Below are positions 5,933-61,868 of a stretch of 64,000 nucleotides of DNA, one piece after another. A program made the translations under genes and the position numbers. This DNA is from an uncultured Bacteroidales bacterium (GTDB lineage: Bacteria; Bacteroidota; Bacteroidia; Bacteroidales; Paludibacteraceae), in the NCBI GenBank assembly GCA_902799705.1, contig CADCBP010000002.1:28181-92180 (forward strand), in the 5' to 3' direction. The notes below the pieces were generated by a model. The model made no database searches, was not told the origin of the DNA, and was given only the letters and a program-made list of their open reading frames with translations. Position 1 is the first letter of the stretch. Each line of letters starts with the position of its first letter.

Positions 5933-5943
5933 AAGTTGAAAGG
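5914..5943. repeat. tandem heptamer repeat (GGTGAAA GTTGAAA)x2 + partial
   Basis: ggtgaaagttgaaaggtgaaagttgaaagg read directly. It contains the stop codon (5930-5932) of the C-N hydrolase gene. Confidence 0.9.
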
Positions 5944-13416: not shown

Positions 13417-13812
13417 ATGAAAACAAAATTTTTTACTCTTGTATTGTCAGCACTCTTTTTGATGCCATGCGCACTTCGCGCAGAAGAAGTAGTTATCCAG
13501 TTGATGGAAGTAGTAACGATGAGTCCTATTCCGGGCGATGATCCATTGGATGGACCAGAACAATCAGGTAATAATCCTACGCGCCCAAATGATTTCCGCG
13601 CAACTGTTGACGGGCATTTCTTGCGTGTCACTAAACAAAATGCGAATATCACGTCTGCGCAGGTAGCCGTAGTGAACGCATCCAACGGAGGTTTGGTATT
13701 GAATCAAGTCATGACAGAATCCATGGAAGAGATCATTTCCAACAACGGCGTGTATGTACTGCATATCGAAACCGAAGGCGGTGCCATCGTCGGACAATTT
13801 ATTGTACAATAA
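13417..13812 (+). CDS. small secreted protein, DUF3244-like, with a T9SS-CTD-like beta-sandwich tail
   Basis: 131 aa. Signal peptide MKTKFFTLVLSALFLMPCALRA. The pattern ATVDGHFLRVT...AQVAVVNASNGGLV...NGVYVLHIETEGGAIVGQFIVQ matches my memory of the DUF3244/CTD pattern. No alignment was run. Confidence 0.5.
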   Translation: MKTKFFTLVLSALFLMPCALRAEEVVIQLMEVVTMSPIPGDDPLDGPEQSGNNPTRPNDFRATVDGHFLRVTKQNANITSAQVAVVNASNGGLVLNQVMTESMEEIISNNGVYVLHIETEGGAIVGQFIVQ

Positions 13813-13831
13813 TTTTAGTTAGTACATAACT

Positions 13832-15715
13832 ATGAAGAAGTCATTTTTGCTATATGCGTTTATACTTATAAATAGCTTGTCTTTGTGGGCTTATGACATC
13901 ACTACATCAGCATTCATTTATGGGCGCACAACATCCACGGCTACAAGTAATTACCCTTCTGGCTCTATTCCTATGGGTGTTCGACGTATTAACTTTAAAA
14001 ATCTCACTAATAATGTTGCACCAGAATTGGAAACAGCTCTAAGCGCTGCCTCTGGGATTTTTACGGATGCGATGTTGCGTGAAAGGATCGATATTGTTCC
14101 GTTGGATGTTACAATTTTGATGGACGATATCGGTCCAGATGAGAATGTTATATGCAAAGTGGAGATCAATTATGCAGATACTGTAGGTTTCCATCCTAAT
14201 TACCCAAGTTTTAGTTGGTATGAGACTTCATATGATGAGCGCGTCCTTTTACCAATGGCTATGATTAATCAAAGTCAACGCAAAAGTGGTGGTACGGCTA
14301 TGCGCATTACGCTCAGACCCAACGTTACATATCATTACGGGATAGATCCAGCTCAGGAAGGGGAATATGACGCGATTACTATTTTATTACGTGCATTAGC
14401 AATGGGTTGCGGAATACAGAGCACATTTAACCCTGAGACAAAGACAGTAGGATATGTTTCGGGCGAAAAGGTCTATGTTAATGCTTTTGATACGCAAATT
14501 TTTAATGAGGATCATGTATCTCTTGTCAGCGTTGCGGATGGAGATGTTGCTGCAGATGCTTTTTTTTCGGAGAAAGGCATCTATGCATATGGATATTTTG
14601 GCCCAGCAGACGAGAGGCAAGTGTACTTGCAAAACGAAAAAGCAATTGCTCCACTTTTCCCTTATTCTGAACTGACAGCTAATACAATTGTTCCAGATAA
14701 TTATACAGAAAATGAAATACAAGAAGACTTCTATGATTTATTAGAATCCTACCTGCCGCCTGAAACATCTATTCGCGTTGTTACTCCATATACGATGGCG
14801 TTACTCAGGCAATTAGGCTGGATGTATAATATTCCCGTAGGGCCCGGAGATGGATTCGCAGATTTATATAATTGCCAATTAATTTGCAATGATTCAACAT
14901 TATCACCAAACACATCGTATTCTATCGGTTTAAATCGCAGTTCAGTGGTTCTGGAAAATGCAGGTTTGCACTGCGAGTTACAAAGCATAGATAGTGTATA
15001 CGATATCGGTTCTTTTAGCAGTGGTTATATTGATGGATATACGTTTACATATAGTACCATTCCTGCCAATGTGCAATGGCGTCGTAACCCTATATCTAAA
15101 AATATCATAGGCCAAATTAGAGGGACTGCGAGTATGTTTGTCGATACATATAAATCACAAACAAAACTTTGTGACATTGAGATTCCTTATAGGCCGAACC
15201 ACCCGTTAGTCCAAAGGAATGAGAGCGCTTCGCAAGGTAACGTATTAATGAATCTATCGGTATTCGCCAATGGTAGCAACACTTATACGATGACGTATGT
15301 AGGCTGGGCTGATTCTATATCTCACACCGAAACTATTACGAAAGATGCTATTGACACAATTTTGATTTTACCTGCCACACAACTCTATGACTTTACCATA
15401 TATGGCACAAATTCGCAAGGTAATAGCGACTCATGCCATTTTACAATGGGTGCATCCGTTATACCTCCCTTATATTTGAATGTAAGCGTTCACGGAAGTA
15501 TCATGCAATATTACTTGGATTCCAATCATTCACAAAATATACCGTGTGTAAACATTAGTTCCGTGGTAGTAACTAACCCTCAAGGGTTGATATATATTAC
15601 ATCTAATGCTTCCCCAGGGGATGAAATAAATATTTCTTCTTTATCGCGTGGTTACTATATTATATCTGTAGTAGCTAATGGATCAACATATAGCAAAATA
15701 TTTTATAAGAGATAA
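13832..15715 (+). CDS. large secreted protein of unknown function with a T9SS C-terminal sorting-domain-like tail
   Basis: 627 aa. Signal peptide MKKSFLLYAFILINSLSLWA. C-terminus INISSLSRGYYIISVVANGSTYSKIFYKR. No HExxH or other catalytic motif was recognised. Confidence 0.55.
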   Translation: MKKSFLLYAFILINSLSLWAYDITTSAFIYGRTTSTATSNYPSGSIPMGVRRINFKNLTNNVAPELETALSAASGIFTDAMLRERIDIVPLDVTILMDDIGPDENVICKVEINYADTVGFHPNYPSFSWYETSYDERVLLPMAMINQSQRKSGGTAMRITLRPNVTYHYGIDPAQEGEYDAITILLRALAMGCGIQSTFNPETKTVGYVSGEKVYVNAFDTQIFNEDHVSLVSVADGDVAADAFFSEKGIYAYGYFGPADERQVYLQNEKAIAPLFPYSELTANTIVPDNYTENEIQEDFYDLLESYLPPETSIRVVTPYTMALLRQLGWMYNIPVGPGDGFADLYNCQLICNDSTLSPNTSYSIGLNRSSVVLENAGLHCELQSIDSVYDIGSFSSGYIDGYTFTYSTIPANVQWRRNPISKNIIGQIRGTASMFVDTYKSQTKLCDIEIPYRPNHPLVQRNESASQGNVLMNLSVFANGSNTYTMTYVGWADSISHTETITKDAIDTILILPATQLYDFTIYGTNSQGNSDSCHFTMGASVIPPLYLNVSVHGSIMQYYLDSNHSQNIPCVNISSVVVTNPQGLIYITSNASPGDEINISSLSRGYYIISVVANGSTYSKIFYKR

Positions 15716-15717
15716 CT

Positions 15718-16182
15718 ATGAAAAAAATATTCATCGCGATATTGTCGTGGGTGTGTTCGAGCACTCTTTGTTTCTCAATAGATGTGTCTCCTTGCGAAAC
15801 CTACCCTGACTTTTACCCAAGATGCATAGTTCGTGGGAATTGTATGAAGTACTATTTATTTGAAGGGAAAGACAAATTAGAAATAGTTGCCGATAGTGTA
15901 TGGATAAACAATCAGGAAGGGGAGACAATCATGATTGTTCGCGAGCGACAAGGAGAACAAGTTGATATTTCTTCTTTATATAGGGGTTATTATATATGCA
16001 ATTTTCAAATAGGAGATTGTATTGGTGCAGATATGTTTTATAATCGCAAAAATCCCGAGGAAGATATACTCACTCCGGATAAAGAACTCATTCCCGCATC
16101 GAAACTCCTCCATGACGGACAAGTGTTAATTCTCAAAGAAAACAAAAAATATACTATAGACGGCAAAGTAATAGAATTATGA
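15718..16182 (+). CDS. small Cys-rich secreted protein with a CTD-like segment
   Basis: 154 aa. Signal peptide MKKIFIAILSWVCSSTLC. It has VDISSLYRGYYICNFQIG (compare the preceding protein) and the tail KLLHDGQVLILKENKKYTIDGKVIEL. The start lies 2 nt after the previous stop. Confidence 0.5.
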   Translation: MKKIFIAILSWVCSSTLCFSIDVSPCETYPDFYPRCIVRGNCMKYYLFEGKDKLEIVADSVWINNQEGETIMIVRERQGEQVDISSLYRGYYICNFQIGDCIGADMFYNRKNPEEDILTPDKELIPASKLLHDGQVLILKENKKYTIDGKVIEL

Positions 16183-16207
16183 AGTCTTTTCACAAGTTCT
16201 CTTGTAG

Positions 16208-16846
16208 ATGTGGGAGGATTATTGCCTATGTTATTATAAATTTAACAGATGTACAATGAAACTTATAAATAAAACCAATCTCTGTATCATGTCGATGGAA
16301 TTAATATTCATATTGGCATTTATCAAAAGTATTGATATTCCAGTTTATTTTGGATCGGACTGGGAGTTTATCGGATGGAGCAACTTATTTCTGCACCATC
16401 CCGGAAATTTTGTGGCGCTCCTGTGTATAATGGGCTTGATATGGAGCCAGTGCGTGAGTTGGGCGTTGCGGCATAAGTTAAAAGGATCACCAGATACACT
16501 GCCTATAAAAATCAACAATATTAAAAACAAGGACACAGAATACATGTCTTTGCTATTTACTATTTTAACAATTGTCAGTTTTGACTTCAGCAACATAAGG
16601 GATATTATTGTTTTTGTGGTTGTATTCTGTATTTATTGCGTCTTACTAAAAAGGACAGATTGGTATGCTGCCAGCCCGATATTAGCTTTAAAAGGGATTC
16701 ACCTCTACGCAGGAGAAACAAATAAGTTGCCTCAAGATACCATATTTCTATCATATGGAGAGATTCCCATAGAAGAAGGGGAAATAATACGTCCTTTTCA
16801 AAAAATCTCCAAAACTGTCTATTGGCTTTATCCTAATGCGCAATAG
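16208..16846 (+). CDS. multi-pass membrane protein, KwaA-like (candidate Kiwa component A)
   Basis: 212 aa, or 196 aa from the alternative ATG at 16256. There are 3-4 hydrophobic helices (ELIFILAFI, NFVALLCIMGLIWSQCVSW, MSLLFTILTIVSF, IIVFVVVFCIYCVLL). It ends 22 nt before the DUF4868-like gene. The call rests on architecture and context only. Confidence 0.45.
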   Translation: MWEDYCLCYYKFNRCTMKLINKTNLCIMSMELIFILAFIKSIDIPVYFGSDWEFIGWSNLFLHHPGNFVALLCIMGLIWSQCVSWALRHKLKGSPDTLPIKINNIKNKDTEYMSLLFTILTIVSFDFSNIRDIIVFVVVFCIYCVLLKRTDWYAASPILALKGIHLYAGETNKLPQDTIFLSYGEIPIEEGEIIRPFQKISKTVYWLYPNAQ

Positions 16847-16868
16847 TAATGCATAAAATGACATAGTT

Positions 16869-17882
16869 ATGACAAAAGAAGAATTACAAGAAAAGCTGGA
16901 TGGGCTAATCGCCCAAGAAGGAAGCAGTATGAATTTGTATTTCATCCTGCACCAACGAGATGAATATATCTTGAAAAAAGCAAATGTTAAGAACGAAGCA
17001 CTTACTCCGATTAGGAATGTACTACGTGACAATCTAGTGCAACTTCGACAGATGATGGATGAGGACACCTTTGCAGTGTTGAATCTATCCGGAGCTGAAG
17101 ACAGAAAAAATGTAATCTATCAGTATGACATGGAAGATGAGCTTCGTCCGATTTCACTAATGAAAGAAGTAGACGAGCATTTGTTTGATGGCAACTACTT
17201 CACATCAGATAATAACCGCATCTTCGACTCCGCCACTGATACATTCGACGAGGTAGATGCTTGGATCGCAAGTTATGGAGTAGAGGGGAATCATCTTATC
17301 ATATATCGCAAAACTTTTTCAGTTAATCTTTTGAAAAAGGAACGAAATGTCTTCGTTTTTAAAGGCACAGAGCAAATCGATATCCTAAAGGATGATATTT
17401 TTAGGATTGATGGTAAAATAGATTTCTTCCTGTTGGATAACACAGCTTTGATTTACAATATATCCATCTTGGAGAAATTCAATGACTTTAAAGATATTGT
17501 GCAACGCTCTGCCCGTAATTCATTGCAACAGATTGCTGCAGCGGATTTAGTTAGTGATATCGCAAAATTACAAGAGAGGGCGCAAGACGACATCTCATTT
17601 GCAAGAAAGTTGATCAAAGTGACAACGAATGCCCTAATTCTTAATGTGGTCAGCAAGGAAACAATCGTTCAATTTGCGAGGACGCACGCTTATCTGTCAA
17701 AAAGATTGAAGGTATCTGCGGATAATAAATTTGAATTAGATAAAAAGACTTCACAAAATCTATTTGTCCAATTATTGGATGATGCCTTTCTTCATTCCGA
17801 ATTGTCAAGCAATGATTATCTTTCACCGGGGAAAGACAGATTATCTTCTGAAGAAGCGCCCGCCAATGCAGACAATTTATAG
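16869..17882 (+). CDS. DUF4868-like cytoplasmic protein, KwaB-like (candidate Kiwa component B)
   Basis: 337 aa, soluble. The size, the position after a ~200-aa multi-TM protein, and segments such as DDISFARKLIKVT and KKTSQNLFVQLLDDAFLHSEL fit my recollection of KwaB/DUF4868. This was not verified by alignment. Confidence 0.5.
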   Translation: MTKEELQEKLDGLIAQEGSSMNLYFILHQRDEYILKKANVKNEALTPIRNVLRDNLVQLRQMMDEDTFAVLNLSGAEDRKNVIYQYDMEDELRPISLMKEVDEHLFDGNYFTSDNNRIFDSATDTFDEVDAWIASYGVEGNHLIIYRKTFSVNLLKKERNVFVFKGTEQIDILKDDIFRIDGKIDFFLLDNTALIYNISILEKFNDFKDIVQRSARNSLQQIAAADLVSDIAKLQERAQDDISFARKLIKVTTNALILNVVSKETIVQFARTHAYLSKRLKVSADNKFELDKKTSQNLFVQLLDDAFLHSELSSNDYLSPGKDRLSSEEAPANADNL

Positions 17883-17910
17883 TACAATAACCTTTTAAAT
17901 TTTTACTGTT

Positions 17911-20340
17911 ATGAAAAAGTTATCACTTGCCCTACTATGTATCTTTGCTTTGTCGTTAAGTGCATATGCACAAGACTACTATTGGTACAAAGGAAAACAA
18001 ATACCATTACAACGAGGGAATCAACGTTATATTATATATGAAGGTAATGACGCGAGAGGCTTAGATTCCCTACGCATTATCGAGACTGGAGATGTTTCTA
18101 CATCAAAGAATCAAAACTTAAAATGGGCCGTCGTTGATCAGGAATCAGAAATTATAGCCCCAAATGTTATTTATCAAACACCATCTTTTTATGGTGCAGG
18201 AACAAAACATGACATATTCGTGACCCACAGGTTTAGCGTAAAACTTAAAAGCGATAAGGATTTTGCAATGTTGCAACAATATGCAAACAAATACAATGCA
18301 GAGATAGAGAAAGACAAGTATCTTCCTTTATGGTACATCCTGACCTGTGATTTCAATGCTCCATACAATGCTTTAGATCTTGCGAATATATTTTACGAAA
18401 CAGGTTTATTTGCTATTTCAGAACCAGAGTTTACACATGTTGCTCTATTAGATTGTGTAAACGATTATTATTTCGCTAATCAATGGAATCTGAAAAACAC
18501 CGGACAATATGGGGCTTCATATAGTGGAATTGATATTAATTATTGCGATGCACATGCCATTACCACAGGAGATTCCTCAGTAATCATCGGTGTGTATGAT
18601 TTAGGTGTAGATTTGACTCATCCGGATATTAATCTCTATTCTTTTAGTTATGATGCAAATACCCATTCTTCTCCGAGTACAATTTATACGAGTGCTAACG
18701 GAAACAATTACCATGGTACAGCGTGTGCCGGTATTATTGGGGCAAAGACAAATAATACGATTGGAGATGCCGGCATAGCTCCAGATTGTCCTATCATGTC
18801 AATTAGTTTCTATAACACTACAACTACGAATATTAGGGATGCTTTTATTGTAGCCGCAAATAATGGTTGTTCTGTTATCAGCAACTCTTGGAGTCTTTCT
18901 TCTCCTTTTGCCGAGGTGGATGCTGGAATATCTTATGCTCTGTCGCAAGGAAGAAACGGGAAAGGCTGCGTAGTGGTTTTTTCCGCGGGGAATAACGATA
19001 GAGATAGTGTTAATTATCCTGCTAATTCAAATGATTCGATTCTTGTTGTAGGCGCCATGTCTCCTTGTGGAGAAAGATGCAATCCTAATTCTTGTGATAG
19101 CGAAAACTGGGGCAGCAACTATGGCAACAAGTTAGATGTTGTGGCTCCCGGTGTCAAGATTCGAACTACCGACCTTGTCGGTGAAGCGGGATACACACCA
19201 AGCGACTACATGGCAGCATTTAATGGAACCTCATCGGCGTGCCCACATGCTGCTGGTATAGCCGGACTAATTCTTTCTGTTAATCCATTTTTAACGCAAA
19301 AAGAAGTGGTTGATATTATAGAATCAACAGCACAAAAGGTAGGATCTTATTCATATACTTCACAATCCGGGCGTCTTAATGGAACATGGAACTATCAAAT
19401 GGGATATGGTCTTGTAGATGCCTATGCAGCAGTTCTCGCCGCCAAAAACCGACTGCCTTCCATTGGAGGATTAGATGTTCTTTGTAGTACAGCCATGTAT
19501 GGTATAGATAATATGCCGACTACCGCCACTGTGAATTGGTCATACGAAACGGATATTATCCCGCACCTCTTCTTCCCCGTAATAAACCTATCGAATACAA
19601 CATCAACATATATAACCGTGCAACGAGGAAGTACGTGTTTACCTGCACATTTCAATCCATCATGTTACTATAATGGAACCGTTACCCTCAAGGCAACAAT
19701 TACAGATTCAGGAATAACAAGACTTTGTACAAAAGACATCATTCTGCATGAGGATATTACACCAACTATACCGGCTTCTCAACGAAGAAAAATAAGTTTA
19801 GATGAGACTCGCACATTTTGTATTGATAATTGTACAGATGTTCCCACTAACAAGTTAAAATGGGTAATAACATTGCCTTCCGCAACAAGTTCGACTACCT
19901 ACTATGGACGTTGTTGGAGTATTACGACAGGATTTTTTATTGTTCAACAGGGGACAATGAATATAAAGCTGTATAACTTGGAAAACTGCGACCCTACATT
20001 ATATACTGACTACAACATCACGATAAGCTATCTTATTCCCGATCCGTTGCTGTCATTCGCAAATCCTGTTACAACCGGCACAGTTGAAATAAACGTGACA
20101 GACAGGAATTATGCACAACGAGACGGAGATGCAGAAGTAGAGAAACGCGAAGATATTGATTACACCTTGGAACTCTGGTCTGAGAATTCCAGGACTGTCC
20201 GTACTGTCAACGGTACGCTTAAAGGAGAGAAGGATGTCGTTACAATGGATGTAAGCAATCTCCCGAACGGTATCTATTTCCTCACCATGAAAGTTAATAA
20301 TGAGATATTAACTACAGAAAAAATGATAATTATTCACTAA
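17911..20340 (+). CDS. subtilisin-like serine protease (peptidase S8) with a T9SS C-terminal sorting domain
   Basis: 809 aa with a signal peptide. Catalytic triad contexts VIIGVYDLGVDLTHPDI (Asp), HGTACAGIIGA (His) and GTSSACPHAAGIAGLILS (Ser). CTD tail VSNLPNGIYFLTMKVNNEILTTEKMIIIH. Confidence 0.88.
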   Translation: MKKLSLALLCIFALSLSAYAQDYYWYKGKQIPLQRGNQRYIIYEGNDARGLDSLRIIETGDVSTSKNQNLKWAVVDQESEIIAPNVIYQTPSFYGAGTKHDIFVTHRFSVKLKSDKDFAMLQQYANKYNAEIEKDKYLPLWYILTCDFNAPYNALDLANIFYETGLFAISEPEFTHVALLDCVNDYYFANQWNLKNTGQYGASYSGIDINYCDAHAITTGDSSVIIGVYDLGVDLTHPDINLYSFSYDANTHSSPSTIYTSANGNNYHGTACAGIIGAKTNNTIGDAGIAPDCPIMSISFYNTTTTNIRDAFIVAANNGCSVISNSWSLSSPFAEVDAGISYALSQGRNGKGCVVVFSAGNNDRDSVNYPANSNDSILVVGAMSPCGERCNPNSCDSENWGSNYGNKLDVVAPGVKIRTTDLVGEAGYTPSDYMAAFNGTSSACPHAAGIAGLILSVNPFLTQKEVVDIIESTAQKVGSYSYTSQSGRLNGTWNYQMGYGLVDAYAAVLAAKNRLPSIGGLDVLCSTAMYGIDNMPTTATVNWSYETDIIPHLFFPVINLSNTTSTYITVQRGSTCLPAHFNPSCYYNGTVTLKATITDSGITRLCTKDIILHEDITPTIPASQRRKISLDETRTFCIDNCTDVPTNKLKWVITLPSATSSTTYYGRCWSITTGFFIVQQGTMNIKLYNLENCDPTLYTDYNITISYLIPDPLLSFANPVTTGTVEINVTDRNYAQRDGDAEVEKREDIDYTLELWSENSRTVRTVNGTLKGEKDVVTMDVSNLPNGIYFLTMKVNNEILTTEKMIIIH

Positions 20341-20377
20341 TTTCCTTCATAAATTTGCATATTTTAAAAATTCATAT

Positions 20378-20385
20378 TAATTTTG
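20378..20385 (+). promoter_or_regulatory. -7 box TAATTTTG just upstream of the OMP gene
   Basis: atTAATTTTGcagg lies 9 nt before the ATG at 20394, which implies a very short leader. Confidence 0.4.
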
Positions 20386-20393
20386 CAGGCGAA

Positions 20394-21287
20394 ATGGTAA
20401 GTATAAAGAAGTACATATTAATCTCTCTTGTGGCTATATTGCCGGCGCTGCCGCTTATGGCGCAGACTTCTACGTTCGCGGTCGGCGTTCGAGGGGGCGG
20501 GATGATGTGGCTTCCTGAAGTTGTTTCTCAAGGTAGGAATGCTGCAAGTAGAATCGGAGGCGAAGGTATCGTAGAGTTCCGATACACGTTTTATGGTCAT
20601 GTGGGACTCAAAACCGGACTTGGAATAACTGCCGGTATAGATGCCGGATACAGTACTTCCGGATTCTACGGAACACATGATGTGTTATACTTGTGGGATG
20701 GGGTAATACATGGTTTATATCGCGACGCGGTAGATTACACACAAACGGAACAGTATATGCGTACGGATATTTCGTTGATGATGGCACTTCATGCCGGGGG
20801 CTTTGTGCTGAATGTAGGTCCCAGGTTCATGATGCCTTTCTTCGGAACGGAAAACACCAGTGCAAAATCGAATAATGATGCAGTATATGTTGAGCCATAT
20901 TTAAATGAGACAAGTCCGGCAGTACTGCCGTTATGTAATCTGTTGATGGGCATAGAAGCCGGTTGGGAGTTTCCTCTTAGTGCAGGTGCCTTGGGCCTTC
21001 AGGCATACGCAGACATAGGAGTTTGGAATAATCAAAAATATATTCCGCATGTTGAACCTCATGACGGGTATCAGCTGCCTGATGCTTTGGTAATTACGGA
21101 AGATGGGACTGTCGGCATCCCCAGAAGTACCATACGTAGTGCTAATGGTGTATTCCGGGAGCGGCGGATCGTGGATTTTGGTATCCGATTATATTATTCT
21201 TTCGGCTCATATTCTTTTGTGGGCAGAAAACGTCCCAGCCCGCCATGGGACACACGACTGCACCATAACAGAATGGGAAGTCGATAA
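20394..21287 (+). CDS. outer-membrane beta-barrel protein (porin-family-like)
   Basis: Signal peptide MVSIKKYILISLVAILPALPLMAQ, followed by alternating Gly/aromatic beta-strand pattern (FAVGVRGGG, GLGITAGIDAGYS, FGIRLYYSF). The start was trimmed from the 20355 TTG ORF. Confidence 0.55.
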   Translation: MVSIKKYILISLVAILPALPLMAQTSTFAVGVRGGGMMWLPEVVSQGRNAASRIGGEGIVEFRYTFYGHVGLKTGLGITAGIDAGYSTSGFYGTHDVLYLWDGVIHGLYRDAVDYTQTEQYMRTDISLMMALHAGGFVLNVGPRFMMPFFGTENTSAKSNNDAVYVEPYLNETSPAVLPLCNLLMGIEAGWEFPLSAGALGLQAYADIGVWNNQKYIPHVEPHDGYQLPDALVITEDGTVGIPRSTIRSANGVFRERRIVDFGIRLYYSFGSYSFVGRKRPSPPWDTRLHHNRMGSR

Positions 21288-21324
21288 ACAGAGGTAGAAG
21301 AAACTCATAAAAATTCCGAAAAAA

Positions 21325-21357
21325 TCCCACATAAATTTGCATATGTGGGATTTTTTG
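21325..21357 (+). terminator. rho-independent terminator
   Basis: TCCCACATAaatttgcaTATGTGGGAtttttt read directly: a 9-bp stem plus a T-run. Confidence 0.8.
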
Positions 21358-21424
21358 TGTACGACACGCATAACAAAATCATAAAAAAGTTTTAAAAATA
21401 CTTGCGTATATCAACAAAAATGTA

Positions 21425-21432
21425 TATCTTTG
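21425..21432 (+). promoter_or_regulatory. -7 box TATCTTTG upstream of abiEi
   Basis: gtaTATCTTTGcagc lies 22 nt before the ATG at 21454. Confidence 0.5.
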
Positions 21433-21453
21433 CAGCGAATTTGAAACAATGTT

Positions 21454-22212
21454 ATGAATTTGTTACCAATTTTACACCAGAAACTCCTATTCACGACAGA
21501 GGATATTGCTCGGGAAATTGGAAATTCGCAAAGTGCGGCTACTATGCTTTGGCGCTACCAGCGTCAAGGCTATATTTCACAAGTGCGGCGTGGATTATAT
21601 TGTGTAAACAATATGGCAACGCAACAGCCGGAAGCCAATAAATTTCAGATAGCCTCTGCGATCACACCAACTTCTTATGTTGCCTACCATGCTGCAATGG
21701 AGTACCATGGGTTGGCCCATCAGGTGTATTATGATGTAGTGGTCGGGACCAAGCAAACATTCAAGGCATTCGAATTCGATAATTATCGCTATGCGCCACA
21801 CCGCTCAGCATGCTCGCTTGAGATAGAAACACCCATAGCAGATACGCACATTCGCGTAACAAGTGTTGAACGAACTATTCTTGATTGTATTGACCGCATC
21901 GACTTGTGTGGCGGATGGGAAGAATTGGTCAACTGCTTGCGAAGCGTAACATACCTGCGGGAAGAGCGGTTGAAATCTACCTTAGAAGCCTATAGCAAAA
22001 CGGCGCTTTACAAAAAGGTTGGCTTCCTGTTTGAGCAACTACAAGTGCCGGCTTCGCAGAATTTTATAGCCGATTGCCGCAAATACGCCAAAGATAGTGT
22101 TATGTACCTAACCTCCGATGGTACAAGCGATACCTTCTATGCTTCGTGGCGGTTATACGCACCTCACAATTTATTAACTATCAATAATCAAAATGCCGAT
22201 GAACTCGTATAA
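21454..22212 (+). CDS. abiEi: AbiEi-family type IV toxin-antitoxin antitoxin / transcriptional regulator
   Basis: 252 aa. N-terminal wHTH FTTEDIAREIGNSQSAATMLWRYQRQGYISQVRRGLY and C-terminal ERTILDCIDR..GGWEEL, typical of AbiEi_4-type antitoxins. Confidence 0.75.
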   Translation: MNLLPILHQKLLFTTEDIAREIGNSQSAATMLWRYQRQGYISQVRRGLYCVNNMATQQPEANKFQIASAITPTSYVAYHAAMEYHGLAHQVYYDVVVGTKQTFKAFEFDNYRYAPHRSACSLEIETPIADTHIRVTSVERTILDCIDRIDLCGGWEELVNCLRSVTYLREERLKSTLEAYSKTALYKKVGFLFEQLQVPASQNFIADCRKYAKDSVMYLTSDGTSDTFYASWRLYAPHNLLTINNQNADELV

Positions 22213-22315
22213 CAAAAACGACTTGTCTCAATTAGCTACACAAACTCTTTTCCTTCGCGATAATTTGGAAAAAGTGTTGCGATTAACTGACATCCGATGG
22301 CATATTGGAAAATGA
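22193..22315 (+). pseudogene. abiEii: truncated AbiEii (nucleotidyltransferase toxin) N-terminal stub, 40 codons
   Basis: The ATG overlaps the abiEi 3' end by 20 nt, as in intact abiE operons. It translates to MPMNSYNKNDLSQLATQTLFLRDNLEKVLRLTDIRWHIGK then stops. AbiEii toxins are several-fold longer, and no continuation is seen in any frame. Confidence 0.45.
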
Positions 22316-22352
22316 GATACTAATACAAAATCTACTGGTTCTACTTAGTTCA

Positions 22353-22387
22353 CCGACAGTGAGCCGACGGTCAGCCGACGGTCAAGG
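22353..22387. repeat. 11-nt-period tandem repeat (CCGACnGTnAn x3)
   Basis: ccgacagtgag ccgacggtcag ccgacggtcaagg read directly. It is 30/35 identical to 51415-51449 inside ileS by my manual alignment. Confidence 0.85.
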
Positions 22388-22443
22388 CTAAGGTAAGGCT
22401 CCTGTAAAACCAAAAAAAAGACCAAAAATCGCATAAAATATAC

Positions 22444-22469
22444 TATATTATATATTTATATATAATATA
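22444..22469. promoter_or_regulatory. perfect 12-bp inverted repeat with 2-nt spacer (candidate operator) upstream of an orphan ORF
   Basis: TATATTATATAT tt ATATATAATATA read directly, ending 20 nt upstream of the ATG at 22489. Confidence 0.4.
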
Positions 22470-22488
22470 CAATTTAACACACTTTTTT

Positions 22489-22839
22489 ATGGCAAAAATA
22501 GAAACTACATCCGCTATCAATCAGATTCATGGCAAAACAAATGGCAGAGACAGAGGCTATTTCTACATGCGTAACGGCAAACAATTTTACCGTGATCGTG
22601 ATGAAACCTATCAACAAAATCAGTCTCCGCGACAAAAATGGAACTCTGCTGCCTTCGCATACGCAAATAAAATTACGAATAAACTCTTTTCCTCTCCGGA
22701 ATCTGTAACTCAATTGAACGAAGAATACGAGGCCTCCAAACACATTGCTTCCAACGGGAAGGTGTATTCCACTCCTCGAGCATGGAAATTTAATTCTCTT
22801 CTCCACGAATATAAACTTGCTCATCCGTTCAAAGGGTAA
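22489..22839 (+). CDS. small basic hypothetical protein
   Basis: 116 aa, MAKIETTSAINQIHGKTNGRDRGYFYMRNGKQFYRDRDETYQQNQSPRQKW... It is more protein-like than the overlapping minus-strand ORF 22474-22893. No family was recognised with confidence. Confidence 0.4.
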   Translation: MAKIETTSAINQIHGKTNGRDRGYFYMRNGKQFYRDRDETYQQNQSPRQKWNSAAFAYANKITNKLFSSPESVTQLNEEYEASKHIASNGKVYSTPRAWKFNSLLHEYKLAHPFKG

Positions 22840-29759: not shown

Positions 29760-31317
29760 CGATGAGATAGATCTCTTGCAACCATACATCATTTACCTCA
29801 AAGGCAAAGGATACGACGTAATCACCGCCACGAACGGCGAGGATGCGATTGAAGTCATCAGCAGTCAGCAGTCAGCAGTCAGCATCGTCTTCTTGGATGA
29901 GAACATGCCGGGAATGACAGGGTTGGAGACGCTGCAGGAGATGAAGCGGTTGCGTCCGGAGGTGCCGGTAGTGATGATTACCAAGTCCGAAGAAGAACAT
30001 ATCATGGAGCAGGCTATCGGAGAGAAGATCGCCGACTATCTCATCAAACCCGTCAATCCCAGCCAGATACTCCTGTGTCTGAAGAAACATGTACACCAGC
30101 AGGCCATCGTCAGCGAGCAGGTGCAGCAGAACTACCGCCAGGAGTGGGGGGATATATCCTATATGATCGACACCGCCAGTACGATTGAGGAGTGGCAGGC
30201 TATCGAGCGTGCGCTCAGCAAATGGGATCTCGAGCTGGCGGGGCTGGAACAGGAACAAGCGGGCCGGGCCGGCATGCATAGTCTGGTGGAAGACCAGCGC
30301 ACGCAAGCCAATGCCGCTTTCGCCAAATGGATAGCGAAGAACTATGAGAGTTGGTTCTCAGCCGTCAGCAGTCAGCCGTCAGCAGTCAGACCGGTCATGT
30401 CTCATGACCTGATGAAGCACGCCGTCTTTCCGCTGCTTGACAAAGGGGAGAAAGTGCTGCTCTGCGTGATAGATAACTTCCGTTATGACCAATGGAAGAC
30501 CATCCAGCCGCTGTTGAGCGAATTCTATACCGTGCGCACGGAGAGTCAATATACATCTATCCTGCCGACGGCTACCCAGTATGCGCGCAATGCGATTTTC
30601 TCCGGTCTCCTGCCGTTGCAGATCCAACAGATGTTCCCGCAATACTGGGTTGAAGAGGGCGATGAAGAGAGTAAGAACCAGCATGAGAAGGAACTTGTCC
30701 AGACGCTGTTGGACCGCTATCGCCGCCGCGAGAGTTTTAACTACTGGAAGGTCAACGAGAGCGATTTCTGCGAACGCGTCATCCATCAACTCAAAGGTTC
30801 GCAAGCACCCCTGAATATCGTCGTGCTCAATTTCATCGACATGCTCTCGCACTCGCGTACAGAGAGTAAGATGATGCGCGAGTTGGCGAACGACGAGTCG
30901 GCGTACCGCAGTCTGACGCTCAGTTGGTTCCGTCACTCGCCGATCTATGAACTGCTGCGGCTGGCGGCCGAGTGGGGTTATACGCTGGTGCTCACCACCG
31001 ATCACGGCACCACGCGCGTGAAGAACGCCGTACAGATAGTGGCGGACAAGAACACGAACACCAATATCCGTTATAAGGTCGGCAAAGCGCTCAATTGCAG
31101 TTCGAAGAATGTCTTCTCTATAGAGCAACCCAAGCGCGTGGGCTTGCCCTGCCCGAATGTGAGCAGCAGTTATGCGTTCTGTACCGGCAGCGATTTCTTC
31201 GCTTACCCGAATCAGTTCAACTATTACGCACAATACTACCGCAACACCTTCCAGCACGGCGGTATATCGCTGGAAGAGATGATTATTCCTTTGGTTACGC
31301 TTGTCCAGAAACGATGA
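29737..31317 (+). CDS. porX: PorX-type T9SS response regulator (CheY receiver + PglZ/alkaline-phosphatase-like domain)
   Basis: 526 aa. Receiver ILWVDDEIDLL...VFLDENMPGMTG...ADYLIKP followed by a PglZ domain (VIDNFRYDQW...TTDHGT). The architecture matches Porphyromonas gingivalis PorX. Confidence 0.85.
   Translation: MSQILWVDDEIDLLQPYIIYLKGKGYDVITATNGEDAIEVISSQQSAVSIVFLDENMPGMTGLETLQEMKRLRPEVPVVMITKSEEEHIMEQAIGEKIADYLIKPVNPSQILLCLKKHVHQQAIVSEQVQQNYRQEWGDISYMIDTASTIEEWQAIERALSKWDLELAGLEQEQAGRAGMHSLVEDQRTQANAAFAKWIAKNYESWFSAVSSQPSAVRPVMSHDLMKHAVFPLLDKGEKVLLCVIDNFRYDQWKTIQPLLSEFYTVRTESQYTSILPTATQYARNAIFSGLLPLQIQQMFPQYWVEEGDEESKNQHEKELVQTLLDRYRRRESFNYWKVNESDFCERVIHQLKGSQAPLNIVVLNFIDMLSHSRTESKMMRELANDESAYRSLTLSWFRHSPIYELLRLAAEWGYTLVLTTDHGTTRVKNAVQIVADKNTNTNIRYKVGKALNCSSKNVFSIEQPKRVGLPCPNVSSSYAFCTGSDFFAYPNQFNYYAQYYRNTFQHGGISLEEMIIPLVTLVQKR
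29859..29886. repeat. tandem heptamer repeat CAGCAGT x3 + CAGCATC inside the porX receiver domain
   Basis: Read directly. It encodes SSQQSAVS in frame. Confidence 0.9.
30359..30393. repeat. tandem heptamer repeat CAGCCGT CAGCAGT CAGCCGT CAGCAGT CAGACCG inside porX
   Basis: Read directly. It encodes SAVSSQPSAVRP in frame, in the receiver-PglZ linker region. Confidence 0.9.
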
Positions 31318-33516: not shown

Positions 33517-34092
33517 ATGCTGAATATCATTTTAAGCGGCGCGCCGGGTAGCGGAAAAGGAACGCAGTCGGCCTTCATCGCCAATAAATACGGCGTGCAA
33601 CACCTCTCTACGGGAGATGTGCTGCGTGCGGAAATTGCCAGCGGCAGTGAGCTGGGTAAACAAATTGATGCCATCATTTCGAAAGGAAACTTAGTGCCTG
33701 ACGAATTGATGTACGGTGTGATCGATAACTATATAGCCAATCTTCCGGAAGGCTGCAAGGGTACGATCTTCGACGGTTATCCCCGTACAGTCGCGCAAGC
33801 AGAGGCCTTGACGGGCTTGCTCAAGAAATACAACATGGACGCGATCATGATTGACCTGATGGTTGACGAGCAGTTGCTTATCCAGCGCCTCATCGAGCGC
33901 GGAAAAGTAAGCGGTCGCGCGGACGACAACCTCAATACTATCCGTCACCGTATCGCCGTATATCACCAGCAAACAGAACCCATTGCGCATTACTACCTGC
34001 ATAACGGAAATTATTTCACCGTGAACGGAAACCACTCAATGGCGGACGTGTTCCTTCAGATCATGCGCGTCATTGAACTGGCTACCCGCTAA
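33517..34092 (+). CDS. adk: adenylate kinase
   Basis: MLNIILSGAPGSGKGTQS...LSTGDVLR...FDGYPRT. The start was trimmed from 33463 because the upstream part covers the hup terminator. Confidence 0.92.
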   Translation: MLNIILSGAPGSGKGTQSAFIANKYGVQHLSTGDVLRAEIASGSELGKQIDAIISKGNLVPDELMYGVIDNYIANLPEGCKGTIFDGYPRTVAQAEALTGLLKKYNMDAIMIDLMVDEQLLIQRLIERGKVSGRADDNLNTIRHRIAVYHQQTEPIAHYYLHNGNYFTVNGNHSMADVFLQIMRVIELATR

Positions 34093-34130
34093 CCCGCTAA
34101 CCCCCTAATCCTCTAATCCTCTAATCCTCC
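34085..34130. repeat. tandem octamer repeat (CCCGCTAA x2, CCCCCTAA, TCCTCTAA x2, TCCTCC)
   Basis: Read directly. It begins in the last codons of adk (stop TAA 34090-34092) and ends at the base before the obg ATG (34131). TAA recurs every 8 nt, so all three frames are hit. Confidence 0.9.
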
Positions 34131-35315: not shown

Positions 35316-35345
35316 AGTTGAAAGTTGAAAGGTGAAAGGTGAAGG
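35314..35345. repeat. tandem heptamer repeat AAAGTTG x2, AAAGGTG x2, AAGGCGC
   Basis: Read directly. It overlaps the obg stop (35313-35315) and contains the GTG start (35339) of the ClC ORF. Confidence 0.9.
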
Positions 35346-49171: not shown

Positions 49172-52100
49172 ATGAAGAAATTTAAGGAATATAAGCAGTT
49201 GAATCTCCCCGAGTTGAGTCGCGAAGTGTTGGCACAGTGGGAGTCAGAGGATTTATTTGGTAAGAGTATATCCACCCGTGCGGGCCATCCGCAGTTCTTG
49301 TTCTTCGAAGGACCGCCTTCGGCGAACGGTATGCCGGGTATTCACCATGTCATGGCGCGAACCATCAAAGATACCTTCTGCCGTTTCAAGACGATGCAGG
49401 GTTTCCAGGTGCGCCGCAAAGCCGGCTGGGATACTCATGGTCTGCCCGTTGAACTCGGTGTGGAGAAGATGTTGGGTATCACCAAAGAGGATATCGGCAA
49501 GAAGATCTCCGTGGATGAATACAACGCGGCTTGCCGTCGCGAGGTGATGAAATACACTAAGGAGTGGACCAACCTCACCAAACAGATGGGCTACTGGGTC
49601 GACCTTGATAACCCCTATATCACGTACGACAACAAGTACATCGAGACCCTGTGGTACCTGCTCAAAGAGCTTTATAAAAAAGGTTTCCTCTACAAGGGCT
49701 ACACCATTCAGCCCTATTCGCCGGCAGCCGGCACAGGATTGTCTTCTCACGAACTGAACCAGCCCGGTTGCTACCGTGACGTCAAAGACCTCACTTGTAC
49801 CGCCCGCTTCAAAGTGAAAGACGGTCGTTTCATCATCGCCTGGACTACCACGCCGTGGACTTTGCCTTCGAATACCGCCCTTTGTGTCGGACCGAAGATT
49901 GACTACGTGGAAGTAAAGACGCCCGCCGGAGAGCATGTCATTCTGGCGGAGGCCCGCTTGGATGCGTATAAGAAAGAACTATGCGGTATGGACGCAGACG
50001 GTAACTTGTTGGAGCCGGAAATCATTGCCCGTTATAAAGGAACGGACTTGGTAGGGCTCAAATACGAACCGCTCTTCCCTTGGGTCAATCCGGGCGAAGG
50101 AGCTTATCGTGTCATTCCCGGTGACTATGTCACCACGGAAGATGGTACCGGTATCGTGCATATCGCGCCTACTTTCGGTGCAGATGATAAGAAAGTGGCA
50201 GATGCTGCAGGCGTACCGGGGCTCTACATGCAAACCAAGAACAACGGTCCGCGGCCTATGGTCGATTTCACCGGCAAGTACTGGCGTGTGGAAGATCTGG
50301 ACCAAGATTGGTACAAAGCCAACGTCAACGACGAACTCTACCGCAAGTACGCAGGCCGTTGGGTTAAGAACGCCTACGACCCGCAGTTCACTATCGACGG
50401 CAAGTACGACGAAGCCGCTGCGGCAAAAGCAGAGAGTCTGGATTTGCATCTCTGCCTGGAGATGAAAGCGGACGGACGCCTGCTCAAGAGCGAGAAACAT
50501 GTGCATACGTACCCCCACTGCTGGCGTACCGACAAACCGGTTCTCTATTATCCGCTCGACTCGTGGTTCATCCAATCGACCAAAGCGCGCGAGCAGATGA
50601 TCGCTCTCAACAAGACCATCAACTGGCAACCCGAATCTACCGGAACAGGGCGTTTCGGTCAGTGGCTGAACAACCTCAACGACTGGAATCTCTCCCGTTC
50701 GCGTTATTGGGGAACGCCATTGCCAATCTGGCGCACGGAAGATGGTAGCGAAGAGATATGTATCGGTTCTATCGCCGAACTCTTCGCGGAAATAGAGAAG
50801 TCTGTGAAGGCCGGTTTCATGAAAGCGAACCCATGGCCGAAACATAAAGTGGGTGATTACAGCAAGGAGAACTACAATCCGTCCGTCATCGATCTCCACC
50901 GTCCCTATGTGGACTCGATTATTCTCGTCTCGCCGTCCGGCAAGCCCATGAAGCGTGAACTCGATCTCATCGACGTATGGTTCGATTCGGGCGCGATGCC
51001 GTATGCGCAGAACCACTATCCCTTCGAGAACGCAGATCTACCGCGTACTGCGGACTTCATCTCCGAAGGCGTGGACCAGACGCGCGGATGGTTCTTTACC
51101 TTGCATGCGATTCACACCATGATAGAAGGAACAGTGGCATACAAAAATGTCATCTCCAACGGTCTGGTTCTCGATAAGAACGGCAACAAGATGTCCAAAC
51201 GTCTCGGCAATGCCGTAGATCCTTTCGGCGCACTCAATACCTACGGTGCCGATGCCGTACGCTGGTATATGCTGACGAACTCCAGCCCGTGGGAGAACCT
51301 CAAGTTCGACCCGGAAGGCGTGGATGAAGTGCGCCGTAAATTCTTCGGAACGCTCTATAATACCTATTCGTTCTTTGCGCTTTACGCTAATGTAGATCAT
51401 TGGACGGTCGAATCCCGACAGTCAAACGACGGTCAACCGACGGTCAAAGACAACGTTGTACCCACGCAAGACCTCTCTGAAATCGACCGATGGATCCTCT
51501 CGAAGCTCAACTCCCTCATCCAAGAGGTCACAGAAGCGTACGAAGCATACGAACCCACCAAAGCCGGACGTGCTATCTCGGATTTCGTGCAGGACGACCT
51601 CTCTAACTGGTATGTGCGTCTGAACCGCAAGCGTTTCTGGGGAGGTGAGATGAACGCAGACAAACAGGCTGCATACACCACCCTCTACACCTGTCTTAAG
51701 ACCGTAGCGCAACTCATGGCGCCGAACGCACCGTTCTATGCAGACCGTCTCTACCGGGACCTCACGGGCGAAACGGTACACCTCAGCACGTGGCCCAAAG
51801 CCGATGAGGATCTCATCAACAAGACGCTCGAGCGTCAGATGTACCTCGCGCAGCAAGCGACATCTACCATCCTCTCGCTCCGCAAACGCGCCGAGAAGAA
51901 CGTCCGTCAGCCACTCCAGAAAGCCGTTATACCTACGCCGGATCAAGAGACAACCGATGCGCTCCTTCACGTTGCTGACCTTATCAAATCGGAGGTGAAC
52001 GTCAAAGAGCTCGTTATCGTTCCTGCCGAGCAATCGGAGATCCGTCTCGTCAAGAAGATCAAACCGAACTTCAAAGTCCTTGGTAAGAAAGTCGGCGCGA

Positions 52101-52567
52101 ACATGAAAGCCCTCGCTGCCGCTATCAACGCCATGTCCCAAGACGACATCGCGAAGATGGAAACCGAAGGTTCTTTCAACTTTCAACTTTCAACTTTCAA
52201 TTGCACGATAGTGCCGGAGGATGTGGAAATTTTGACGGAAGACATGCCGGGCTGGCTCGTTGCCAACAACGGTATTCTGACCATTGCGCTGGATATCGAA
52301 CTGACCGATGAACTCATCGAAGAGGGTATTGCGCGTGAACTCATCAACCGCATCCAGAACCTTCGTAAATCTTCCGGCCTGGAGATCACCGACCGCATCG
52401 AGATCGAACTCGAGGACCGTCCGGAGATTCATAACGCAGTGCTCCACTGCGGCGATTATATCGCATCTCAGGTGTTGGCTACTTCGCTCACACTCGGCAC
52501 AGCCGTATCCGGAGAGTCCGTTGAAATGGACGGATATAATATCAATATAGCAATCAAAAAAGCATAA
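49172..52567 (+). CDS. ileS: isoleucyl-tRNA synthetase (type 2)
   Basis: 1131 aa. PSANGMPGIHHVMAR (HIGH region), KMSKRLGN (KMSKS) and a CP1 editing domain. It contains two in-frame tandem-repeat segments. Confidence 0.95.
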   Translation: MKKFKEYKQLNLPELSREVLAQWESEDLFGKSISTRAGHPQFLFFEGPPSANGMPGIHHVMARTIKDTFCRFKTMQGFQVRRKAGWDTHGLPVELGVEKMLGITKEDIGKKISVDEYNAACRREVMKYTKEWTNLTKQMGYWVDLDNPYITYDNKYIETLWYLLKELYKKGFLYKGYTIQPYSPAAGTGLSSHELNQPGCYRDVKDLTCTARFKVKDGRFIIAWTTTPWTLPSNTALCVGPKIDYVEVKTPAGEHVILAEARLDAYKKELCGMDADGNLLEPEIIARYKGTDLVGLKYEPLFPWVNPGEGAYRVIPGDYVTTEDGTGIVHIAPTFGADDKKVADAAGVPGLYMQTKNNGPRPMVDFTGKYWRVEDLDQDWYKANVNDELYRKYAGRWVKNAYDPQFTIDGKYDEAAAAKAESLDLHLCLEMKADGRLLKSEKHVHTYPHCWRTDKPVLYYPLDSWFIQSTKAREQMIALNKTINWQPESTGTGRFGQWLNNLNDWNLSRSRYWGTPLPIWRTEDGSEEICIGSIAELFAEIEKSVKAGFMKANPWPKHKVGDYSKENYNPSVIDLHRPYVDSIILVSPSGKPMKRELDLIDVWFDSGAMPYAQNHYPFENADLPRTADFISEGVDQTRGWFFTLHAIHTMIEGTVAYKNVISNGLVLDKNGNKMSKRLGNAVDPFGALNTYGADAVRWYMLTNSSPWENLKFDPEGVDEVRRKFFGTLYNTYSFFALYANVDHWTVESRQSNDGQPTVKDNVVPTQDLSEIDRWILSKLNSLIQEVTEAYEAYEPTKAGRAISDFVQDDLSNWYVRLNRKRFWGGEMNADKQAAYTTLYTCLKTVAQLMAPNAPFYADRLYRDLTGETVHLSTWPKADEDLINKTLERQMYLAQQATSTILSLRKRAEKNVRQPLQKAVIPTPDQETTDALLHVADLIKSEVNVKELVIVPAEQSEIRLVKKIKPNFKVLGKKVGANMKALAAAINAMSQDDIAKMETEGSFNFQLSTFNCTIVPEDVEILTEDMPGWLVANNGILTIALDIELTDELIEEGIARELINRIQNLRKSSGLEITDRIEIELEDRPEIHNAVLHCGDYIASQVLATSLTLGTAVSGESVEMDGYNINIAIKKA
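51403..51449. repeat. 11-14 nt period tandem repeat (GACnGTC core, 4 units) inside ileS
   Basis: ggacggtcgaatcc cgacagtcaaa cgacggtcaac cgacggtcaaag read directly. It encodes TVESRQSNDGQPTVK in frame. Confidence 0.85.
52174..52201. repeat. tandem heptamer repeat TTTCAAC x3 + TTTCAAT inside ileS
   Basis: Read directly. It encodes SFNFQLSTFN in frame. It is the reverse complement of the GTTGAAA motif at 5914 and 35314. Confidence 0.9.
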
Positions 52568-61824: not shown

Positions 61825-61868
61825 TCTTTCATTCTTTCATTCTTTCACTCTTTCATTCTTTCACCTTA
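61821..61868. repeat. tandem octamer repeat (TCATTCTT x3, TCACTCTT, TCATTCTT, TCACCTTA)
   Basis: Read directly. It fills the pepO-stop to OMP-start junction on the minus strand. The minus strand reads as a chain of overlapping ATG/GTG-AAA-GA(A/G)-TGA mini-ORFs ending in the real ATG at 61824. Confidence 0.9.

Follow-up and report, generated by a model that had tools for sequence, protein, structure and literature searches.

The DNA described here is a stretch of 64,000 nucleotides (nt), called the window throughout, from an uncultured Bacteroidales bacterium of the Paludibacteraceae (contig CADCBP010000002.1 of assembly GCA_902799705.1). It carries two copies of a short element built of 11-nt tandem repeats, one (site A) in the 5' leader of an orphan gene for a protein of 116 amino acids (aa) and the other (site B) translated within ileS, the gene for isoleucine-tRNA ligase (IleRS). 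The two sites are, with high confidence, members of a dispersed family that has been propagated as pre-formed arrays. Family 1 is the label used for the element that both represent, and L-numbers (L002, L063, L120 and so on) label the loci or genomes of relatives that were compared with the window. The elements and their hosts are as follows.

22338..22407, + strand: family-1 element, copy A (limits from conservation between copies at -16 to +23 around the array, and from Tandem Repeats Finder, TRF)
22489..22839, + strand: orphan 116-aa gene whose leader (22338-22488) hosts copy A, with a recurring leader layout
51400..51469, + strand: family-1 element, copy B, translated within ileS (from the sequence and TRF)
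49172..52567, + strand: ileS, isoleucine-tRNA ligase, 1131 aa, host of copy B (Pfam; similarity to solved IleRS)
51404..51478, + strand: hypervariable 25-codon linker of IleRS, TVESRQSNDGQPTVKDNVVPTQDLS, between the catalytic and anticodon-binding domains

An earlier, sequence-only reading of this DNA had pointed out that the window reads ccgacagtgagccgacggtcagccgacggtcaagg at 22353-22387 (site A) and ccgacagtcaaacgacggtcaaccgacggtcaaag at 51415-51449 (site B), and re-reading of the sequence confirmed that these agree at 30 of 35 positions. The 11-nt periodicity that it had noticed in both sites was recovered by TRF, which reports period-11 arrays of 2.9 and 3.0 copies with the consensus sequences CCGACGGTCAG and CGACGGTCAAA. 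Copy A consists of a short 5' flank, three 11-nt units (strictly 22354-22384) and a 3' tail, aaggctaaggtaaggctcctgta, and is identical in L063, L125 and L134-L138. Copy B comprises a degenerate 5' unit, ggacggtcgaatc, three units (strictly 51416-51446) and a tail, aaagacaacgttgtaccc, that fits the family consensus A[AG]GC[CT]AA[YG]GTnA; it is in frame, as had been stated, and encodes RQSNDGQPTVK as residues 749-759 of the 1131-aa open reading frame (ORF).

The similarity between the sites does not stem from base composition, a possibility that the sequence-only reading had raised against itself. With up to one mismatch, the 10-mer CCGACGGTCA occurs 11 times in the window, compared with 3.5 +/- 1.8 times in shuffled sequence, and six of the 11 occurrences fall within the two arrays, so that the motif is not a common k-mer; by our own calculation, the probability of a chance 30/35 match in 64 kb is of the order of 1e-7. 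The array at site A was found base for base in five independent assemblies from other samples and that at site B in three, and therefore neither is an assembly artefact. No copy-number variation was seen among these assemblies, and array length is constant among the window-type IleRS orthologues (P0001-P0046). This invariance in five and three assemblies sets the arrays apart from phase-variable contingency repeats, in which copy number is expected to vary among closely related strains and thereby to turn a gene on or off.

The phenomenon is much wider than the two copies first noticed. A scan of one genome per species across bacteria and archaea, with CGACGGTCANNCGACGGTCA as the query, returned at least 119 loci, about 80 of which lie in about 45 species-level metagenome-assembled genomes (MAGs) labelled Paludibacteraceae or Bacteroidales, recovered from cattle, goat, sheep, deer, yak and one pig gut. 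Among the matches listed, a single MAG holds up to 5 family-1 loci, with several MAGs having matches on 3-5 different contigs each, and the 82 arrays at clade loci collapse to about 42 non-orthologous locus groups. The remaining matches listed (about 39) are two-unit matches in GC-rich genomes without the family flanks; about 17 chance matches to the query would be expected under uniform base composition (our calculation). Phage were considered as vectors and rejected, since just two viral contigs match, in unrelated contexts. A literature search for the exact sequence, or for an 11-nt family of this kind, found nothing, which is not proof that the family is undescribed.

A run-length census of the unit CGAC[AG]GT[CG]A in 736 kb of clade DNA, with Markov simulations as controls, yielded 19 single units, 10 runs of two, 53 of three, 17 of four, two of five and one of six. 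Single units are thus no more frequent than in the simulations (19-28), while runs of three to four units number 70. The unit is met almost solely in arrays of three or four, and a pool of single units that could have seeded independent arrays is missing. The longest arrays, with six units at L094:-1533 and five at L101:+6260, both belong to Red_deer_4_mag_9 and have common flanks of their own (cagcaagcaacaC before the array and ACCG[AT]A.GATTACCGTA..ATAGTGCTTG after it), an indication of a separate subfamily or of locus duplication in that genome.

The anatomy of the copies extends the resemblance beyond the repeat itself. Over 263 units the consensus is C-CGAC-R-GTCA-R, in which positions 2-5, 7, 8 and 10 are invariant and positions 1 (C/A/G), 6 (G/A), 9 (C/G) and 11 (A/G) vary; the core GAC-N-GTC is an interrupted palindrome. 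Across unrelated loci, the array is preceded by the consensus ..AA....C...CAAtCC and followed by the tail A[AG]GC[CT]AA[YG]GTnA and then, more weakly, ...CTGT. The tail is present in both window copies, as aaggctaaggta at site A and aaagacaacgtt at site B. Information content over background, computed for 38 groups with the leader copies of the 116-aa gene left out, runs from -16 to +23 around the array and not beyond. The conserved GT.A and CAA positions of the flanks keep the 11-nt phase of the array, and the element, about 70 nt in all, is for this reason best described as a lattice of about seven 11-nt units with a homogenised centre and a fixed, degenerate leader and tail.

Pre-formed arrays with shared flanks at unrelated loci imply that sites A and B are not independent products of replication slippage. 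Slippage at two sites, or a chance match, would have its best footing in the array-making habit of this genome: TRF (score of at least 40) finds 22 tandem arrays in the window, where third-order Markov simulations give about 1.2, and arrays with unique units are common in the clade. Such an origin is nevertheless very improbable; it would have to place one unit and one tail at about 42 unrelated loci, single units show no excess, a chance match of this quality is exceedingly rare, and the scan, flank and run-length results already contradict it. The earlier judgement that two independent slippage events were unlikely is borne out by the recurrence of the same array and flanks at dozens of unrelated loci with no single-copy seed pool, and its core proposal, copying and pasting of a short element or a common template, draws support from the dispersal of arrays with flanks over dozens of related genomes.

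Family-1 arrays are better conserved than the sequences around them. In orthologous pairs, the array core is 87-100% identical and the 200-nt coding flanks are 65-80% identical, as three pairs (fractions identical) illustrate.

L002/L055: flanks 0.67 and 0.69, array 0.97
L022/L074: flanks 0.73 and 0.66, array 1.00
L027/L084: flanks 0.75 and 0.66, array 1.00

Species diverge no more slowly under neutral concerted evolution, be it within loci or between them. Identity of the array above that of its flanks therefore implies either nucleotide-level selection on the unit or continual rewriting from a conserved source. A unit common to all arrays of a genome and specific to it was considered and rejected as a simple rule: L120 carries GACGAAAACGA in ileS and CCGACGGTCAA elsewhere.

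The positions occupied by the arrays have a common character. Some 17-18 of the approximately 42 groups (about 40%) lie within long ORFs and the remainder are intergenic; the coding copies occupy the gaps between Pfam domains, in one case a loop inside a domain, or protein N- or C-termini, at the following sites.

Linker of an EPSP-synthase/glycosyltransferase (GT2) protein
Linker of a glutamate-synthase-type (GltD-type) fusion
Low-complexity linker of an amidase
Loop of an M16 peptidase
Tail of an ABC-F ATPase
N-terminal signal-peptide extensions of giant secreted proteins
IleRS junction between tRNA-synt_1 and Anticodon_1

Family 1 was found only where added sequence does no harm: 5' leaders, spacers after co-oriented genes, and protein linkers, loops or termini. 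As the period is 11, all three frames of the unit specify the same cyclic peptide, PTVNRRSTDGQ, which is free of stop codons and hydrophilic. The antisense strand, TTGACCGTCGG, presents TGA in each frame within three units, which is sufficient on its own to confine coding copies to the sense orientation; in the only antisense coding copies, at L031/L048, the third unit is mutated to GTGAG and one frame is open. Orientation is also non-random more widely. The upstream gene is co-oriented in 18 of 23 intergenic groups, often ending 3-90 nt ahead of the array, and polarity follows the local coding strand at 32 loci against 10. A polarity of replication, of the kind shown by Chi or KOPS, was rejected, GC skew having no relation to array orientation (19 versus 23). 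Array polarity is thus tied to transcription and not to replication.

Conservation and polarity together bring up a functional cis-element as a possible, although not a likely, account: a sequence-specific protein would bind the arrays, either as DNA or in the sense transcript, at a palindromic core, GAC-N-GTC, that recurs every 11 nt and so once per helical turn, and selection would keep the arrays, their dispersal being secondary. This account overlaps with the explanation preferred below. It is favored by conservation beyond that of the flanking codons, by a narrow copy number of 3-4 that is invariant between assemblies, by an array placed 21-23 nt after a TAnnTTTG box in every leader of the 116-aa gene, although the orthologous proteins are just about 62-75% identical, and by a polarity that goes with the coding strand and not with GC skew. 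It sits poorly with copies at places that look merely permissive, such as linkers, signal-peptide extensions and C-terminal tails, and with an ileS site that holds a different family in sister lineages at no apparent cost; moreover, no binding protein is known, and the adjacent 116-aa protein lacks a recognizable nucleic-acid-binding fold.

Selection on a structured noncoding RNA, or on the encoded peptide as a protein module, has far less in its favor. The GAC of one unit can pair with the GUC of the adjacent unit, and the cyclic peptide is hydrophilic and loop-like. Against this, an Rfam search of the whole window brought a single tRNA to the gathering score and no family for the arrays, and fold z-scores of -1.4, +0.6, -2.1 (driven by an AT palindrome) and -3.0 are inconsistent and disclosed no common structure; covariation of the 5' CTGTC with the GACAG of the last unit was sought by eye in the aligned copies and none was seen. 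Over half of the copies are noncoding, and nucleotide identity exceeds what selection on a peptide would need. A role of either kind is accordingly given very little weight.

In IleRS, Pfam assigns tRNA-synt_1 to residues 19-712 and Anticodon_1 to residues 772-917. At the linker between these two domains the solved IleRS 8c8w is about 13 aa shorter, and the DNA of the linker itself forms a lattice of about seven 11-nt units. A set of 120 IleRS orthologues, with overall identities of 87-100%, shows a hypervariable stretch between ANVD.W and EIDRWIL. Conservation of the segment at the protein level, which would have told against the sequence-only reading, was not found: variants not of the window type are 88-93% identical overall and yet have a quite different linker sequence. 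Many linker variants are three-frame translations of 11-nt arrays, which take the following forms.

Window type: (CGACGGTCAA)3
L060: window-type unit shifted by 5 nt
L120, 12247-12291: (GACGAAAACGA)4
L122, 12247-12291: (CACGGCAACGA)4

The part of ileS that runs from TAYGC to TGGAT measures exactly 113 nt in 9 of 11 lineages, irrespective of the array that it carries. The sequence-only reading had proposed to check whether relatives lack the 33-nt segment; other lineages carry a different sequence there. A simple insertion of 33 nt would have lengthened the segment, so the ileS copy looks like an exchange at constant length and not like an insertion.

The units of L120 and L122 belong to a second dispersed 11-nt family (GACGAAAACGA/CACGGCAACGA). 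The unit GACGAAAACGA was also detected in ileS of L148 and L156 by a metagenome scan, and the family occupies loci other than ileS (L147/L150, L151/L154 and L057), with a common 5' flank, GCTGTCAAACACGG. For one of these GACGAAAACGA loci, the orthologue in L057 has a CACGGCAACGA-type array, such that the two units alternate at orthologous sites. Both families can reside in one genome: in L120, ileS carries the second family, and a family-1 array separates panC from a dehydrogenase gene. A comparable exchange is seen in the infC-rpmI spacer (L021:1657-1760, L071:4955-5060, L018, L030 and L103), a lattice of about ten 11-nt units in the order (TAGGACAAAAA)n, a hybrid unit, family-1 units and tail. 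The boundary between (TAGGACAAAAA)n and the family-1 units shifts by one unit with total length kept, and in L018 flanks of 98% identity enclose a different subfamily variant.

Overall, these observations are probably best explained by a single lineage-specific interspersed element of about 70 nt that is copied into and within 11-nt lattices. The element is propagated as a ready-made array plus flanks instead of being built locally by slippage, and its copies would be written into, or overwritten within, pre-existing lattices by templated replacement, which might take the form of ectopic conversion or of template switching between arrays. On this explanation the content of the IleRS linker would switch among family 1 (in two registers) and GACGAAAACGA/CACGGCAACGA while its length stays the same, as templated replacement would ensure, and the unit would be kept either because it has a sequence-specific function, for example as an array that a protein binds on DNA or mRNA, or because it is continually rewritten from a conserved source. 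The route itself, templated and length-neutral replacement, is put forward more tentatively, at somewhat less than even odds.

Several points weigh against copying into lattices as the explanation. Arrays also form locally in this lineage, as the array-rich genome with its many arrays of unique units makes plain, and all counts of family-1 loci per genome are lower bounds. No copying machinery was identified. As no recent presence/absence polymorphism with clean junctions turned up, templated replacement rests on length conservation, a pattern that strong selection on the length of the IleRS linker could also give. Arrays of different families would offer little homology for conversion of the RecA type. 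Finally, neutral concerted evolution cannot by itself account for conservation across species, and a function or a source must be assumed.

Transposition of a non-autonomous element of the MITE (miniature inverted-repeat transposable element) type by a transposase was also weighed, with BrickBuilt of Porphyromonas gingivalis as the precedent. BrickBuilt has 23-nt units, a leader and a tail, about 19 loci and small inverted-repeat ends, and is always intergenic (PMC4596501). Family 1 resembles it as a multi-copy, lineage-restricted Bacteroidales element in which a conserved leader and tail surround a spacer-less tandem array; it differs in having 11-nt units, in being often genic, and in that no terminal inverted repeats or target duplications were detected. 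The mean longest word shared as a flanking direct repeat was 5.48 nt, compared with 5.20 nt in shuffled pairings, and as a flanking inverted repeat 5.29 nt compared with 5.09 nt, neither being an excess; target duplication was judged from these flanks, with no empty site for a direct test. Since, in addition, many copies lie inside genes and those in ileS replace sequence instead of adding to it, movement by a transposase is improbable.

Site A bears on where a template might come from. In the leaders of L063, L125-L133, L029, L042 and L083, whose 116-aa orthologues are about 62-97% identical to the protein of the window, the order is a Bacteroidetes-type TAnnTTTG box, 21-23 nt, array, tail, AT palindrome and start codon. 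The leader of L111 has the promoter box, array and tail without the AT palindrome, and in L115 a distance of 272 nt separates the array from the ATG downstream of it. The sequence-only reading had assigned site A to intergenic DNA of an islet. The islet does end beside the array, but the array itself sits in the conserved 5' leader of the 116-aa gene.

A master transcript with this leader as its source, from which reverse-transcribed 5' fragments would be pasted into lattices, offers an RNA-templated version of copying and one form of the common template that the sequence-only reading had proposed. The geometry of Bacteroides promoters was used to place the start of transcription 21-23 nt after the TAnnTTTG box, and the similarity among dispersed copies begins at -16, a few bases from this expected start. 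A leader copy is present in all orthologues examined, 12 of the 16 positions of the dispersed 5' consensus agree with the L111 leader, polarity follows transcription, and replacement without change of length recalls the retrohoming of diversity-generating retroelements. Several points tell against it. No reverse transcriptase is linked to the arrays, and a Pfam scan of part of the window found none. Adenine-specific variation is absent, with the A at unit positions 4 and 10 invariant; unlike those in the target of a diversity-generating retroelement, differences between copies are not confined to adenines. The coincidence with a transcription start is indirect, and processed retro-copies in bacteria are, to our knowledge, essentially without example. 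RNA-templated copying from this leader is consequently regarded as unlikely. Scarcely more probable is a broader scheme in which ruminant-gut Paludibacteraceae practice templated, length-neutral cassette-writing, RNA- or DNA-templated and possibly with the 5' leader transcript of the 116-aa gene as its source, and the arrays so written then serve as genome-wide binding sites for a factor.

The 116-aa protein gives few hints of a role. It matches no Pfam family and belongs to a narrow, clade-restricted protein family (65 clusters at 50% identity); its AF2 model is confident, with a pLDDT of 88.9, and has no fold match in PDB or BFVD. As a candidate array-binding factor, it has no support either way from these searches.

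The closest known analogues of family 1 are the cyanobacterial short tandemly repeated repetitive (STRR) sequences, the TAACTGA repeats, BrickBuilt and the Rickettsia palindromic elements (RPEs). TAACTGA heptamer repeats occur in marine Beggiatoaceae, cyanobacteria and some Bacteroidetes as 169 sets of 2-6 copies (MacGregor, 2015; PMC4679880). Related units or single copies do not predict the arrays, which are mostly forward relative to neighboring genes; a small number of sets fall inside ORFs, the repeats are distributed patchily across the phylogeny, and mechanism and function were left unexplained (PMC4679880). The same paper summarizes the "long simple sequence repeats" (LSSRs), with units of 5-11 nt, of Mrazek et al. 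(2007). Family 1 is like both of these in presenting one short unit as many separate small arrays at unrelated loci, with an array number that the frequency of single units does not explain (19 singles versus 19-28 expected), and, going by that summary, like the LSSRs in a unit within the 5-11 nt range (11 nt) and a generally array-rich genome. It is unlike TAACTGA in its unit of 11 nt instead of 7, in the translation of about 40% of its copies, in its conserved non-repeat flanks, in arrays that are not concentrated just upstream of start codons, and in families that replace each other at one site.

STRR sequences are families of short tandem repeats, heptamers, in intergenic regions and operon spacers of one lineage, for which a role in transcript stability or translational coupling was proposed (PMC2670836). 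They are usually described as intergenic, and the text consulted reports no in-frame copies in essential genes, which family 1 has. With these differences, family 1 possesses the defining features of the group of dispersed short tandem repeats made up of STRR, TAACTGA and LSSR. The RPEs, described as "selfish DNA in protein-coding genes" (summarized in PMC10969869), are palindromic, about 100-150 bp long and lengthen the host gene. Their sole common feature with family 1 is residence in frame, translated, inside unrelated housekeeping genes at positions that the protein fold apparently tolerates; family 1 is a direct-repeat array of about 70 nt, and the IleRS segment is 113 nt with or without it.

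If the preferred explanation of one element copied into lattices is true, an abundant, uncultured rumen lineage has short repeats that are translated inside essential enzymes and are kept more faithfully than the surrounding codons, while swapping with other families at unchanged length. This would bear on the spread of dispersed short tandem repeats such as STRR and TAACTGA, a question open since their discovery, and would supply natural examples of protein loops that tolerate arbitrary 11-residue cassettes. There is also a practical side: in rumen MAGs, the arrays interrupt short-read assemblies and displace gene calls. A large number of public contigs stop within the leader of the 116-aa gene, presumably because assembly fails at the repeat and the palindrome, and Logan contigs break within its AT palindrome.

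The surroundings of site A hold the following further features.

22444..22469, no strand: AT palindrome TATATTATATAT-T-TATATATAATATA, 26 nt, conserved, between the array and the start codon
22199..22315, + strand: 38-codon ORF, possibly a truncated abiEii; overlaps the end of abiEi and is called as a 38-aa gene in L134-L138
21454..22212, + strand: AbiEi antitoxin gene, upstream neighbor of copy A (Pfam AbiEi_4 and AbiEi_1)
16869-17882: KwaB-like (Kiwa defence) gene in the variable block
17911-20340: S8 peptidase gene, product sorted by the type IX secretion system (T9SS), in the variable block

Relative to L063, positions 13417-22315 of the window are a variable block that looks like a small defence islet. 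The 38-codon ORF marks the right edge of this islet, which replaced the promoter of the 116-aa gene: the TAnnTTTG box is gone in the window, and L063 has a TAccTTTG promoter at that position. BLAST similarity of the window to L063, to which it is 96% identical, begins at 22353, the first base of the array. The array edge was considered as the exact breakpoint and rejected, as weak TTAG-type similarity may extend about 12-15 nt upstream of 22353; the breakpoint is near the array and not necessarily at its edge. The sequence-only reading had called this place an abiEii deletion scar, which is plausible but not proven. The upstream gene is AbiEi by Pfam, while identification of the 38-codon ORF as abiEii was set aside after it matched no Pfam family and, by tblastn, no plasmid sequence.

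Arrays of other kinds are abundant around family 1. Periods of 7, 8 and 11 dominate in 668 kb of clade DNA, and heptamer arrays of the form (NNNTCAA)4 (TTATCAA, TTGTCAA and CTTTCAA) occur at many loci, often filling the spacers of co-directional genes. The lineage makes and tolerates short arrays generally; family 1 stands out among them by copy number, flanks and conservation. Arrays in the window have periods of 7, 8, 11 and 14, and some exactly fill co-directional gene spacers while others are in frame in ORFs; examples are at 5916-5942, 29858-29884, 30358-30389, 34084-34124, 35314-35343, 55249-55282, 61819-61863 and 63623-63652. Elsewhere, different arrays stand in series and make up long intergenic stretches. 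On the reverse strand of L098, about 300 nt before the array at 1162 hold successive arrays of about three units, of the CCGATATTGA type, CCCCGGCTCAC and CTCCGACTTAC, followed by family 1, and in L094 a 22-nt array and (TTATCAA)n precede the family-1 array at 1533.

In its C-terminal part, ileS itself contains a second tandem array, of the heptamer kind, that behaves as a lattice in the same way as the 11-nt arrays.

52173..52200, + strand: (CTTTCAA)x4 in ileS, 7-nt unit, encoding FNFQLSTFN

This stretch aligns to (CAACTRT)4 in L122, L026 and L120 and to degenerate heptamers in L121. All four units change in concert. The window and L121 agree in length here; L122, L026 and L120 are shorter by six bases just upstream of the array. 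A further coding segment rewritten as a short array lies in the ORF at 11749-13203, where about 100 nt (11880-11990), including the TTTCA-rich heptamer patch tttcacttttcaattttcatttttca, are wholly unlike L063 in a gene that is otherwise 92-96% identical.

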